The position numbers were made by a program, and so were the translations under genes. Below the pieces are notes generated by a model. The model was not told the origin of the DNA. It saw nothing but the letters and a program-made list of their open reading frames with translations, and did no database searches. A stretch of 64,000 nt of DNA from an uncultured delta proteobacterium (GTDB lineage: Bacteria > Desulfobacterota > RBG-13-43-22), in contig CAWJJC010000020.1 in the NCBI GenBank assembly GCA_963843145.1, forward strand, positions 288,001-352,000. Direction: 5' to 3'. Every line of letters starts with the position of its first letter. The stretch's first letter is position 1. This document shows positions 17,778 to 36,032 of this stretch, one piece after another.

Positions 17778-17818
17778 TACAATAATGTAAATTTATAAAT
17801 TGTAATTACATTTTTGGA
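17778..17818. promoter_or_regulatory. tandem enhancer boxes (TAC-N6-GTA-like)
   Basis: TACAATAATGTA (17778) and TACATTTTTGGA (17807). Confidence 0.75.
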
Positions 17819-17897
17819 TTATATCTTCCGAGACCATCCCCGCCCACAAATCGAATAACCCATTGAATAATAGACATATAATTAACTTTCTCCTTTA

Positions 17898-17913
17898 TGG
17901 CACGATCCCTGCA
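17898..17913 (+). promoter_or_regulatory. sigma54 -24/-12 promoter of porin-PII-activator genes
   Basis: TGGCACGATCCCTGCA, GG-N10-GC; IHF-like TAACCCATTGAAT at 17856. Confidence 0.85.
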
Positions 17914-17997
17914 TTTTCTACCAATCAGCAAACGTTGGATCCGGATCCCCAACGACGTTTAAAAAAAATCTAAAGCAACCCTAAGGAGAAAAAGAAA

Positions 17998-18792
17998 ATG
18001 AGAAAACGTTTACTAAGCCTGATTATTTCGATGTTCATGCTGATGGCCTTTAGTCTGCCGGCCCTGGCCGAAGAAAAAAAGGAGGAGCCCAAGCCCTATT
18101 CCAGTGTTTCCGCCGGCTTCCTCAGCAAGTATGTCTGGCGGGGCTACGAATTGAGCAAGGACAGCCTGGTCATCCAACCCTCGATCACGGTTGGCTACCG
18201 GGGCTTTGAAGCCAACCTCTGGGGCAACCTGGACACCAATGACAAATTCACCGGGGCCGAAAAGGCCAAATGGAACGAGACGGACCTGACCTTGTCCTAT
18301 ACCCATGATCTGGGCCCGGTAAAACTGAGCGGCGGATATATCTACTATGCCCTCGAGGGGGTGGAGGACTCGCAGGAATTGTTCTTAAAGATTGGGGGGA
18401 ATTTCCTGCTCTCCCCCACCTTGTCCATTTATCGAGAAATCGCCAACTATCCGGGCTGGTACTTGAACTTGGGCGTCAGTCATTCCTTTAACCTGACCAA
18501 GGAAATCACCCTGGACCTGGGGGCCGGGATCGGCTACCAGATTTCCGATACCGACAAAATCCTGAAGTACGATTCCAATCGGCTGCCGACCGCCGACAAG
18601 TACAACGCCCTCCACGACGGAAATTTCTCGGTGGGGCTGACCGTTCCCTTCGGCAAGTATTTTTCGGTCAAACCGGTGATCAGCTACTCGGTGGCCCTGT
18701 CGGATGACGCCAAAAACCGCATCCGGGGCACCAGCCTGAGTGACAATAACGACTTTATTTACGGCGGAGTTATCCTGACCGCCGCCTTCTAG
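17998..18792 (+). CDS. outer-membrane beta-barrel, TorF / TIGR02001-like putative porin
   Basis: Signal peptide ending ALA, SKYVWRG motif, NETDLTLSY, terminal YGGVILTAAF with C-terminal Phe. Confidence 0.75.
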   Translation: MRKRLLSLIISMFMLMAFSLPALAEEKKEEPKPYSSVSAGFLSKYVWRGYELSKDSLVIQPSITVGYRGFEANLWGNLDTNDKFTGAEKAKWNETDLTLSYTHDLGPVKLSGGYIYYALEGVEDSQELFLKIGGNFLLSPTLSIYREIANYPGWYLNLGVSHSFNLTKEITLDLGAGIGYQISDTDKILKYDSNRLPTADKYNALHDGNFSVGLTVPFGKYFSVKPVISYSVALSDDAKNRIRGTSLSDNNDFIYGGVILTAAF

Positions 18793-18807
18793 AGGAGGCC
18801 GAACCGA

Positions 18808-18856
18808 AGGCCAGACCCTGGAAATTCTGTTTAAAAAACGGACCGGGGTCTGGCCT
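18808..18856 (+). terminator. intergenic stem-loop after the porin gene
   Basis: AGGCCAGACCCTGG...CCGGGGTCTGGCCT; no U-tract, so it may stabilise mRNA rather than terminate. Confidence 0.45.
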
Positions 18857-18948
18857 GTCTCAACCAAGCCTTTCGCCTTGAATCCTAAAGAAAAAACGAC
18901 ATTTTTAGCGATAATTAACAGGGCCGACGATTGGACCGGGAGAATGTC

Positions 18949-19305
18949 ATGTTTAAAAAAATAAAGGCCTTGATCGATCCCTTTCATCTGGATGAAGTCC
19001 AAGTCGCCCTGGAGGAATTGGGCGTTAAAGGGGTGATCATTTCTTCATGCAACGATTTCGCCCCACAGAAAGGTCCGGCGATGATTTTCCGAGGAAAAGA
19101 AAGGGCGACAGACTATTTATCCGCCATCAGGCTCGAAATGGTGGTGGATCAGGAAATGGCCCGGGAGGTCATAGAAACCATTCAAGAAGCCGATGGGGCC
19201 GGCTTGGACCAAGTGAATAGGATTTCTGTTCTGCCCATTGAAGAAGTGATTTCCCTGGAAACCTTTGGGGACGCGGAATATCACGGCTTAGGGGGAGGAA
19301 CGTAA
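18949..19305 (+). CDS. degenerate PII-family protein
   Basis: [26 protein letters not shown] and FRGKE recognisable; Tyr51 and the [10 protein letters not shown]-loop are lost. Confidence 0.75.
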
Positions 19306-19315
19306 AGGGGCGCGG

Positions 19316-33365: not shown

Positions 33366-33501
33366 AACAAAATTGTCAAAAAATAAAAAAAATAATACAA
33401 TTTTGGACTAACATAAAACGGCCCGCTATGGGGAAATATTTGTATAACCTATTGAAATTTTATTCAAAAATACAAAAATACCCTTTTGGCACATTTCCTG
33501 C
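33366..33501 (+). promoter_or_regulatory. amtB2 sigma54 promoter with enhancer pair and IHF-like site
   Basis: AACAAAATTGTC (33366), TACAATTTTGGA (33396), TAACCTATTGAAA (33445), TGGCACATTTCCTGC (33487). Confidence 0.8.
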
Positions 33502-33557
33502 CTCTGCAATCGGCAACGATTTGAAGAAATTTCTTTTCACAGGGGGAGGAAACAACC

Positions 33558-34787
33558 ATGGATGCAATCAACACGGGGGACACGGCCTTCATTTTGATCT
33601 CGGCCGCTTTAGTGATGTTCATGACCCCAGGACTGGCCTTGTTCTACGGCGGTATGGTCCGGAGCAAAAACGTCCTGGGAACCATCATGCACAGTTTTAT
33701 TATCTTAGGGCTGATTTCGGTCGAATGGGTCCTCTGGGGCTACAGCAATGCCTTCGGGCCCGACCTGGGAGGGATCATCGGCAGCCTGGATTGGTTTGGA
33801 CTGGCCGGGGTGGGAACGGCACCTTTCAAGGATTATTCGGCCACCATTCCGCACCAGGCCTTTATGGCTTTTCAACTGATGTTTGCGGTCATTACACCGG
33901 CCCTGATTACCGGGACCTTTGCGGAACGCATGAAATTCTCCACCTTTCTGGTTTTCACGCTCCTTTGGGCAACGTTGGTTTATAACCCGGTGGCCCATTG
34001 GGTTTGGGGTATCGGCGGGTGGGTCCGCGACCTGGGGGCCCTGGATTTTGCCGGCGGCACCGTAGTGCATATTAATTCCGGGATCGCCGCCCTGGCGGCC
34101 GCCATCGTCATCGGCAAACGCAAGGGATACGGTCATGAGCCGTTCCATCCCCACAATCTGCCCATGACCATCCTGGGCGCCTCCATCCTCTGGTTCGGCT
34201 GGTTCGGCTTCAATGCCGGCAGCGCCCTGGCGGCCAACGGCTTGGCCGTCTCGGCCTTTGTGGCCACCCATATCGCCGCCGCGGCCGCGACCCTCTCCTG
34301 GACCTTTACCGAATGGCTCTATCGGGGCAAGCCTACCACCCTGGGGGCCGCCAGCGGCTGCGTGGCCGGCCTGGTGGCTATTACCCCGGCCGCTGGTTTC
34401 GTGGGCCCCCTTTCGGCCATTATTATCGGCTTGGCGGCCGGCTGTCTCTGTTATTTTGCTATTTTCTTAAAACATAAACTCGGCTACGATGATGCCCTGG
34501 ATGTAGTCGGCGTCCATGGGGTCGGTGGGACCTTCGGCGCCCTGGCCACCGGTCTATTCGCCAGCAAGGCCATCAACGAGGCCGGCAACAATGGCCTATT
34601 TTTCGGGAATCCGTCGCTCCTCGGCACCCAGGCCCTCGCCGTGGGAGTCACCTTGATTTACTCCTTTGTGATGACCCTGATCATCCTCAAGGTCCTGGAC
34701 TGGACCATGGGCCTGCGGGTGGAAACGGAAGAGGAGAGGGCCGGGCTGGATATCAGTCAACACAGTGAAGTGGGCTATACCCTATAG
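33558..34787 (+). CDS. amtB: ammonium transporter
   Basis: [42 protein letters not shown]. Confidence 0.96.
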   Translation: MDAINTGDTAFILISAALVMFMTPGLALFYGGMVRSKNVLGTIMHSFIILGLISVEWVLWGYSNAFGPDLGGIIGSLDWFGLAGVGTAPFKDYSATIPHQAFMAFQLMFAVITPALITGTFAERMKFSTFLVFTLLWATLVYNPVAHWVWGIGGWVRDLGALDFAGGTVVHINSGIAALAAAIVIGKRKGYGHEPFHPHNLPMTILGASILWFGWFGFNAGSALAANGLAVSAFVATHIAAAAATLSWTFTEWLYRGKPTTLGAASGCVAGLVAITPAAGFVGPLSAIIIGLAAGCLCYFAIFLKHKLGYDDALDVVGVHGVGGTFGALATGLFASKAINEAGNNGLFFGNPSLLGTQALAVGVTLIYSFVMTLIILKVLDWTMGLRVETEEERAGLDISQHSEVGYTL

Positions 34788-34799
34788 GAGAGAAAAAAC

Positions 34800-35138
34800 A
34801 TGAAAAAGATTGAAGCGATTATCAAACCCTTTAAGTTGGACGAGGTGAAAGACGCCCTCCAGGCCCTGGATATCAAAGGCCTGACCATTACCGAGGTAAA
34901 AGGGTTTGGCCGACAGAAAGGACACACTGAAATCTATCGGGGAGCGGAATATATTGTCGACTTCATCCCCAAAGTCAAATTGGAACTGATCCTCGACGAT
35001 GGGCAGGTGCCCGCCGTTCTGAAGACCCTGCAGGAGTCGGCCCGGACCGGGAAAATCGGTGATGGGAAGATTTTTGTATTGCCGGTGGAGGAAGTCATTC
35101 GTATCCGGACCGGTGAAACCGGGGCCGCGGCAATATAA
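34800..35138 (+). CDS. glnK: PII nitrogen regulator
   Basis: Canonical PII with YRGAEY; follows amtB. Confidence 0.95.
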
Positions 35139-35158
35139 AAGGCGCGACGAGGCGGGTA

Positions 35159-35893
35159 ATGAACAAAACGGCTCTCATTCTGCAGCATACTGCCGAAGAA
35201 CGGGGAGGCCTGTTTGAAGAAGTCCTTCTGGAACTGGGATGGGGCTTGGAGATCCTGCCTCTCTTTGCCGGAGCGGATCTCCCCGCCTCCCCTTACGGGT
35301 TTGACCTGACTCTGGTCATGGGCGGACCCATGAGCGCCAATCAGGAAAAGGCCTATCCCTTTCTCAAAAAAGAAATACCCTTTCTCCGGAAAGCCCTGAA
35401 AACGGAGGAACCGGTCTTGGGAATCTGCCTGGGGGCCCAACTTATGGCCAAAGCCTTAGGGGCCAAGGTCTATCCCGGACCTCATAAGGAAATTGGCTGG
35501 TACTGGCTGAACCAGACCCCTTCGGCGCGAAACGATCCCCTTTTTTCCCAGTTGGATCCTTATTTCATGGTCTTCCAGTGGCATGGAGAGACCTTCGACC
35601 TTCCCCCCGGGGCGGACTGCCTGGCCGGCAACCCCGCCTATCCTCACCAGGCCTTCCGCTGGGGGACGATGGCCTACGGGTTTCAATTCCACCTAGAAAT
35701 CACCCAACCCATGCTGGAGACCTGGCTGACCTCCTGGGGGGAAGACATCAGAAAGGCCCGCCCCCAACCGAACACGGCTCAGGATATTCTGCGGGACGCC
35801 GCTATTTATCTGGAACGTCTCCAGGCCCAGGCCCGTCGGGTTTTACTGGGCTACCTCCAGTTCTTGGAAACAAAAGGAAAATCCGTTCATTAA
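35159..35893 (+). CDS. stand-alone class I glutamine amidotransferase
   Basis: MGGPMS, LGICLGAQ (catalytic Cys), FQWHGETF, QFHLE (His-Glu). Confidence 0.9.
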   Translation: MNKTALILQHTAEERGGLFEEVLLELGWGLEILPLFAGADLPASPYGFDLTLVMGGPMSANQEKAYPFLKKEIPFLRKALKTEEPVLGICLGAQLMAKALGAKVYPGPHKEIGWYWLNQTPSARNDPLFSQLDPYFMVFQWHGETFDLPPGADCLAGNPAYPHQAFRWGTMAYGFQFHLEITQPMLETWLTSWGEDIRKARPQPNTAQDILRDAAIYLERLQAQARRVLLGYLQFLETKGKSVH

Positions 35894-35896
35894 CAT

Positions 35897-36032
35897 TACA
35901 ATAATGTATAATTATTTGGCAAATTAAATACAATACTGTATAATTATTCTCCGAGGATCCCCGAGTCTGTTTTTTTAGCCCATTGTTATTATTGTTTTTT
36001 TATATATTGGGGGGAATGGCACAGGGATTGCT
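35897..36032 (+). promoter_or_regulatory. glnB-glnD-glnA sigma54 promoter with enhancer pair and IHF-like site
   Basis: TACAATAATGTA (35897), TACAATACTGTA (35929), TAGCCCATTGTTA (35976), TGGCACAGGGATTGCT (36017). Confidence 0.85.

Follow-up and report, generated by a model that had tools for sequence, protein, structure and literature searches.

The 64,000-nucleotide stretch analysed in this study (the window; positions 288001–352000 of contig C20 of genome G000, which measures 5.3 Mb and is 98% complete) encodes proteins whose relatives bear the names Thermodesulfobacteriota or Deltaproteobacteria. It contains a row of nitrogen genes (Table 1): a porin gene followed by the genes of a degenerate PII-like protein (pseudoPII) and of the activator EBP-A (EBP, enhancer-binding protein), a molybdenum nitrogenase operon, the ammonium transporter genes amtB1 and amtB2 with PII genes, and glnB-glnD-glnA, downstream of which lie glnE and then glutamate synthase-like genes. 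Four of these transcription units are preceded by σ54 promoters with two upstream boxes. These shared boxes are real and mark genes of ammonium uptake and glutamine synthesis. The question treated here is which activator acts through them.

At the porin, amtB1, amtB2 and glnB promoters, the layout proposed in a sequence-only reading of the window (paired boxes, a site resembling those bound by integration host factor (IHF), as well as a −24/−12 element) holds to the base. The boxes are 29, 29, 30 and 32 bp apart, respectively, and yield the consensus of a paired TACA-W4-TGTA in front of good −24/−12 elements; three of the eight boxes match TACA-N4-TGTA exactly, three have one mismatch and two have two. 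The IHF-like sites, on the reverse strand, show one, one, one and two mismatches to the consensus WATCAANNNNTTR. The genome encodes rpoN (over its cut-off) and four IHF/HU-family genes which, together with the −24/−12 elements and the IHF-like sites between boxes and promoter, place these promoters in the σ54/IHF class. In the five RNA runs listed, the shares were at most 0.12 for all contigs, too low for reading start sites.

A matrix built from the eight window boxes was run over the 481 σ54-like sites of the genome. Pair scores of 27–36 were obtained at five sites, and every other site scored 15 or less. The fifth and highest-scoring pair, absent from the training set, belongs to a third amtB gene on contig C22 (L083:7840-8111, divergent from parA-parB), where the boxes lie about one turn closer to the promoter (−109/−77). 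Promoters held out of the matrix ranked 3, 5, 5 and 4 of 481, and the top five were always the identical five promoters. The nifH promoter, the fifth σ54 promoter of this span, is without the pair. Single boxes on C19, C23, C6, C9, C10, C17 and at C22:381771, with genes of no nitrogen role downstream, were not accepted.

Among relatives, 55 distinct paired-box promoters were collected. Box 1 lies at −116 to −124 in 52 of them, within an allowed range of −160 to −70, and the spacing is 29, 30 or 32 in 54. In 50 promoters, an IHF-like word on the reverse strand falls between −47 and −40, against 7.3 in 300 shuffles (maximum 16). Since these promoters were selected on box score, which makes their box content circular, and are kin, they demonstrate a fixed geometry rather than an independent probability.

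Two GAF activators of this kind are encoded in the genome, EBP-A and EBP-B (C22:419779-421347), which are 54% identical and differ in their recognition helices; of about 40 EBPs, only these two were followed across relatives. EBP-A orthologues (87–99%) and nifH were found in the identical five of 20 family relatives, i.e. in six of 21 family genomes with G000, and EBP-B in 17 of the 20 (81–99.6% identity). The box pair is present in all 15 readable glnB promoters, 12 of them from genomes without EBP-A and nifH. Counted by genome, 13 of the 15 EBP-A-negative family members have it, and in the other two (G004 and G016) no promoter was readable. In G003, a genome of the same genus, a clean deletion of about 11 kb (L208, G003:C48) joins the equivalents of window positions 19510 and 30474 and leaves the first 65 EBP-A codons and no nif cluster, and all four box pairs are kept. 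At four amtB2 loci without a promoter, the gene directly abuts the end of a porin-like gene and is therefore operon-internal. Because the boxes are kept in 13 genomes in which neither EBP-A nor nifH was found, G003 included, EBP-A is very unlikely to be their activator. The most probable reader of the boxes is a master activator whose gene lies outside the window, EBP-B on C22.

EBP-B carries the recognition helix RI(M/I)NYK, and its gene is itself preceded by a single box for 16 of the 17 family orthologues (C22:419608 in G000), the 17th being located at a contig end. This box overlaps the −35 of TTGTTT-17-TGnTA, a σ70-like promoter shape. A box scoring at least 10 was found at 36 of 77 wider EBP-B relatives, compared with 32 of the 462 remaining genes at these loci and 59 of 3260 genes in G000. 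Distant relatives of EBP-B adjoin glt, amtB, glnA or glnD; the neighbours of EBP-B are thiolase/icd and iron alcohol dehydrogenase genes. EBP-B exceeds the NCBIfam NifA cut-off, yet it is present in family genomes in which nifH was not found, and the NifA label is thus misleading here. None of the 26 matches to TIGR01818 in the genome exceeds its cut-off for NtrC, and no ntrC occurs in the window, which agrees with the earlier remark that ntrBC is missing there. The broader suggestion of a σ54/IHF nitrogen-assimilation regulon with a TAC-N6-GTA core under a non-NtrC activator of the GAF type is supported.

The nifH promoter has sites of its own. In all six family diazotrophs it is without the assimilation pair, and one CCTAC-N6-GTAG word near −178 and another near −148 are retained while their flanks diverge (the search windows in relatives were set by the G000 offsets). 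Matrices of the assimilation and the nif-type sites score each other's sites negative, and in the genome the nif-type matrix finds a pair at nifH only; among 110 assimilation boxes the C flank occurs in two and the G flank in six. In each of the six genomes, EBP-A closes a paired-box operon, the first gene being that of a porin, an amidotransferase or PII. Judged from these sites, the EBP-A gene is itself a predicted target of the assimilation-box regulon, and its product's likely target is the nifH promoter with the C/G-flanked pair. The nif-type boxes lie inside the 3′ end of EBP-A in G000 and are non-coding in most relatives; EBP-A carries here a C-terminal extension of about 14 residues compared with its closest orthologues (20860–20905), so that the nifH boxes fall inside its frame. 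Between about −90 and −50 (20950–21010), the nifH promoter also has a block TTTAAAAAAA...CCCCTTGGTTTT(C/T)AAA..GGGTTTT that is conserved in the six family genomes and may be an IHF or other site.

The pseudoPII gene directly precedes EBP-A in all six family genomes bearing EBP-A, and it was kept in G003 after the nif deletion. Compared with three canonical PII copies, the uridylylation tyrosine, the GFGR stretch and the TGKIGDGK loop are altered; the uridylylated residue and the nucleotide-binding loop are lost. The seven family copies share 44–89% identity. Structure prediction for a complex between the GAF domain of EBP-A and a pseudoPII trimer gave a score of 0.00, which speaks neither for nor against an interaction.

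Table 1 Features of the nitrogen gene region (window coordinates; offsets are relative to the GG of the −24/−12 element)
Feature	Position	Strand	Remarks
Paired assimilation-type boxes, porin-pseudoPII-EBP-A promoter	17778–17789 and 17807–17818		Offsets −121/−92; kept in relatives
IHF-like site, porin promoter	17856–17868	−	Offset −43; position conserved
σ54 −24/−12 element, porin operon	17898–17913	+	First G of GG at 17899
TorF/Gcw_chp-like putative outer-membrane porin	17998–18792	+	Family cut-offs not reached
Degenerate PII-like protein (pseudoPII)	18949–19305	+	Immediately 5′ of EBP-A
EBP-A, GAF-AAA+-HTH activator	19316–20905	+	Helix TERMIGLR; co-occurs with nifH
Paired nif-type boxes, CCTAC-N6-GTAG	20865–20910		Cores at 20867 and 20897; −178/−148 from nifH GG
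σ54 −24/−12 element, nifH	21044–21059	+	GG at 21045
nifH-nifI1-nifI2-nifD-nifK-nifE-nifN-nifB-ferredoxin, Mo nitrogenase	21103–30268	+	nifD passes TIGR01282
Paired boxes, amtB1 promoter	30739–30779		First box 30739, second 30768; offsets −119/−90
IHF-like site, amtB1 promoter	30817–30829	−	Offset −41
σ54 element, amtB1	30857–30872	+	First G of GG at 30858
amtB1 and PII gene	31133–33154	+	PII at 32816–33154; amtB1 frame break near 5′ end
Paired boxes, amtB2 promoter	33366–33407		First box 33366, second 33396; offsets −122/−92
IHF-like site, amtB2 promoter	33445–33457	−	Offset −43
σ54 element, amtB2	33487–33502	+	First G of GG at 33488
amtB2, PII, class I glutamine amidotransferase	33558–35893	+	
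Paired boxes, glnB-glnD-glnA promoter	35897–35940		Boxes 35897 and 35929, both exact; offsets −121/−89
IHF-like site, glnB promoter	35976–35988	−	Offset −42
σ54 element, glnB	36017–36032	+	First G of GG at 36018
glnB, glnD, glnA	36102–40560	+	glnA is the sole glutamine synthetase found in the genome

The regulon is a further case of a computationally predicted kind and not a new kind of system. According to the published description of Desulfovibrionales (Kazakov et al. 2015, PMC4641369), the one-component σ54 activator DVU1949 was predicted to control amt-glnB-glnD, glnA and its own operon through 16-bp sites with an A/T-flanked ACA-N4-TGT, often in 30–32 bp pairs; in the supplement, such sites also precede the nif-activator genes Desal_0518 and DvMF_2528. 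The site shape, the pair spacing, the targets, the site at the gene of the putative activator and the inclusion of nif-activator genes all recur here, although the match of the window and family consensus to the DVU1949 sites was judged by eye, on 115 of the 117 places in the published table. Apart from the lineage, the differences are that the target list extends here to a porin and to three amtB genes, that the geometry is stricter (−121/−91, with the IHF-like site at −43; IHF is not mentioned in the main text of that paper), that no box was found in our genome scans for the one glutamate dehydrogenase gene or the glutamate synthase genes, and that EBP-B does not lie behind iorAB and is not co-transcribed with a DVU1952-like gene and iorAB, the co-occurrence of iorAB with DVU1949 being given for four genomes only. 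A protein of G060 encoded after hypothetical-iorA-iorB, the synteny given for DVU1949, was used as its stand-in; its best match is EBP-B (453 vs. 414 bits), with which it shares the recognition helix. The labels in the list of DNA-binding domains (supplementary file 2 of PMC4641369) were not relied on, since those of the first rows are shifted and the row "DVU1949" contains the C-terminus of the plasmid protein DVUA0143. In a literature search, with most subscription journals and RegPrecise outside it, DVU1949 turned up in a single paper, and experimental work on it was not found.

For Desulfovibrionales, the same source (PMC4641369) predicted a distinct nif regulon under DVUA0143, with C/G-flanked C(T/G)AC-N6-GT(A/C)G sites at nifH. 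The system described here resembles it in having a proposed nif-specific GAF activator under a σ54 promoter, C/G-flanked nifH sites and a distribution that matches nitrogenase. The local differences are the other nif-activator clade and the degenerate PII: EBP-A is preceded by pseudoPII, falls outside the DVUA0143 clade (support 99) and groups with Chlorobium GAF activators, is 44% identical with DVUA0143 and has the helix TERMIGLR instead of TPRQMGYR. Both our trees were quick ones composed without AnfA/VnfA reference proteins, and the first lacked five rows (G007 EBP-A, G060a, G050b, G037a and G053a). DVUA0143 on the D. vulgaris plasmid pDV has a σ54 element, but its assimilation box is weak (5.6). 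Of 26 nif-activator loci in another order of the phylum, 24 have readable upstream DNA, and an assimilation-type box precedes 19 of these 24 genes, compared with 26 of 226 tiles; on the strength of these sites, a cascade from the activator to nif-activator genes looks general.

In the sequence-only reading, TAC-N6-GTA was named as the Azotobacter AnfA/VnfA-type site. As a consensus, it was derived for AnfA of Rhodobacter capsulatus and for the anfH promoters of alphaproteobacteria, and the motifs of Azotobacter VnfA and AnfA differ (PMC7294313). For R. palustris AnfA, unmodified PII is described to inhibit via the GAF domain (PMC12093980). AnfA is, by description and site, like the activators discussed here in its GAF-AAA+-HTH architecture, in the two TAC-N6-GTA sites needed for full activation and in the proposed PII-GAF control; unlike them, it drives Fe-only nitrogenase, whereas the core serves ammonium assimilation and Mo nitrogenase here. 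One EBP-A homologue bears the automatic name VnfA. Paired TAC-N6-GTA sites do occur at a nitrogenase promoter, but the nitrogenase is not of the alternative (Fe-only or V) type: NifD passes TIGR01282 and is far under the VnfD and AnfD cut-offs, and nifEN are present.

In Proteobacteria, the NtrBC-NifA cascade places amtB, PII and glnA genes and the gene of the nif-specific activator under one master nitrogen activator. From the sites, their geometry, the gene content and the co-occurrences observed here, we consider it probable that two paralogous GAF-AAA+-HTH activators form a two-tier σ54 cascade which would fill the role that NtrC-NifA has in enterics: EBP-B would control the assimilation promoters and the EBP-A operon, and EBP-A would control nif. 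Under nitrogen shortage, EBP-B dimers would bind the two A/T-flanked TACA-W4-TGTA boxes at about −121/−91, three helical turns apart on one face, and IHF bound at about −43 may bend the DNA and bring EBP-B onto the σ54 holoenzyme. EBP-B would thus switch on amtB1, amtB2, the third amtB, glnB-glnD-glnA and porin-pseudoPII-EBP-A and, by covering the −35 of its own σ70-like promoter, might repress itself. EBP-A supplied by the porin operon would then bind the CCTAC-N6-GTAG pair and turn on the Mo-nitrogenase operon, in which NifI1 and NifI2 presumably provide a further, post-translational switch-off. By analogy with R. palustris AnfA (PMC12093980), the nitrogen status may reach the GAF domains through PII and GlnD. 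The logic and the targets correspond to those of NtrBC-NifA, but there is no NtrC by the NCBIfam cut-off in this genome, the putative master has a GAF instead of a receiver domain, and the site differs.

Several findings weigh against the proposed cascade. G001, G013 and G014 bear the boxes, yet EBP-B was not found in them; the G014 contig ends at the expected place of EBP-B and G001 and G013 are also without its usual neighbour gene, but G013, in which EBP-A alone was found, is rated 100% complete. In the quick tree, the DVU1949-like protein of G060 forms a long branch in a polytomy with the EBP-A and EBP-B clades, and the orthology of EBP-B and DVU1949 thus rests on the best match and the helix; the published DVU1949 assignment is itself only predicted. 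Both site types share TAC-N6-GTA, which makes cross-binding possible. In other lineages (L235 in G026, L238 in G034 and L239 in G032), EBP-A-type activators adjoin porin, amtB, PII or glnA genes, and nifH was not found in these three genomes; two such activators flank one amtB operon in G026. The clade is thus not always nif-specific and can serve assimilation.

An alternative keeps EBP-B as the main activator but lets EBP-A, once produced, attach to the A/T-flanked boxes too; it would then stimulate its own operon and, in the diazotrophic family members, amtB and glnA in a positive feedback, a weaker version of the sequence-only proposal. The common core, the 54% identity of the two proteins, the presence of EBP-A alone in the box-bearing G013 and the amtB-flanking proteins all favour it; the two matrices, however, score each other's sites negative, the recognition helices differ, and the best upstream site at the amtB-flanking EBP-A-type proteins tends to be C-flanked (G026, G034). 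We regard such feedback as unlikely.

It is likewise improbable that the boxes are bound by a third factor, e.g. a receiver-domain EBP comparable to GnfM of Geobacter or to DVU3220 of Desulfovibrio, with EBP-B as just one of its targets. As described for G. sulfurreducens, GnfM controls glnB, nifH and gdhA via paired sites at −128 to −89 (PMC2995071), and experimental binding of DVU3220 to the amt promoter is cited in PMC4641369; furthermore, the genome has 26 matches to receiver-type or related EBPs, and EBP-B is missing from three box-bearing assemblies. These absences fit assembly gaps, however, and a GAF-type EBP is indicated both by the single box over the EBP-B −35 across the phylum and by the TAC-N6-GTA core, which is that of the related AnfA (PMC7294313). 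GnfL/GnfM is comparable as a σ54 master other than NtrC that governs glnB and nif genes through paired upstream sites in a member of the same phylum, but it consists, as published, of a kinase and a receiver-domain EBP acting directly on nifH, with GnfK/GnfR antitermination, whereas one-component GAF proteins and a second activator would operate here (PMC2995071).

The sequence-only reading had favoured the protein encoded at 19316–20905, i.e. EBP-A, as the activator that serves all four promoters and also its own gene. Physical linkage, the boxes in its own operon promoter and a score passing near the NifA cut-off speak for this choice, but the boxes persist in the 13 family genomes lacking both the protein and nifH, the clean deletion included, EBP-A tracks nifH exactly, and nifH has its own, different pair. 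We consider this assignment very unlikely; autoregulation is not supported either, the gene being a predicted regulon target and the C22 paralogue fitting the activator role instead. Finally, the notion that the boxes are chance words in A+T-rich intergenic DNA, suggested by the very high A+T content of the promoters and the two mismatches in two of the eight boxes, is refuted by the genome scan, with its out-of-sample third amtB and held-out ranks within the top five of 481, and by the offsets and spacing fixed in relatives.

The proposed two-tier cascade with EBP-B as its master carries the prediction of 2015 into a further lineage and spells out what the supplement of PMC4641369 only implies. 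Nitrogen sensing without NtrBC in sulfate reducers and their kin, which are abundant diazotrophs of sediments and wet soils, has so far only been predicted. This locus is an unusually clean test set, comprising five promoters whose geometry is fixed, one natural deletion telling the two candidate activators apart and a distinct site type at nifH, and the named candidate belongs to the DVU1949 family, which is present in genetically tractable Desulfovibrio. A bolder version, which we find unlikely, is that a one-component GAF master replaces NtrBC in much of Desulfobacterota, that it and its nif-specific paralogue read a common TAC-N6-GTA core and are insulated by one flanking base pair set by the recognition helix (RIxNYK reading A/T and RxxGLR reading C/G) and that, in this family, the non-uridylylatable pseudoPII is a dedicated partner of EBP-A, in the position of NifL next to NifA.

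Some minor features of the window were also recorded. The amtB1 gene (31133–32799) has a frame break about 50 codons past its start and is a single frame in the relative G002, so that either an assembly error or a pseudogene may be involved. Gene remnants without a Pfam match lie between the ferredoxin gene and the amtB1 promoter (30312–30680), and their start resembles a molybdate/sulfate transporter; at 30441, some 300 bp upstream of the amtB1 pair, they contain a strong isolated box. The word GTTGGATCCGGA, about 35 bases below the GG in the porin and amtB1 promoters (17930–17950 and 30885–30900), occurs also in G003 and may be a leader element. Two A+T-rich segments (43900–44010 and 46040–46220) lie upstream of hydrogenase-delta/MTHFR genes and of three split glutamate synthase-like genes; our scans found no σ54 element or box upstream of these genes, and an inverted repeat precedes position 46218.

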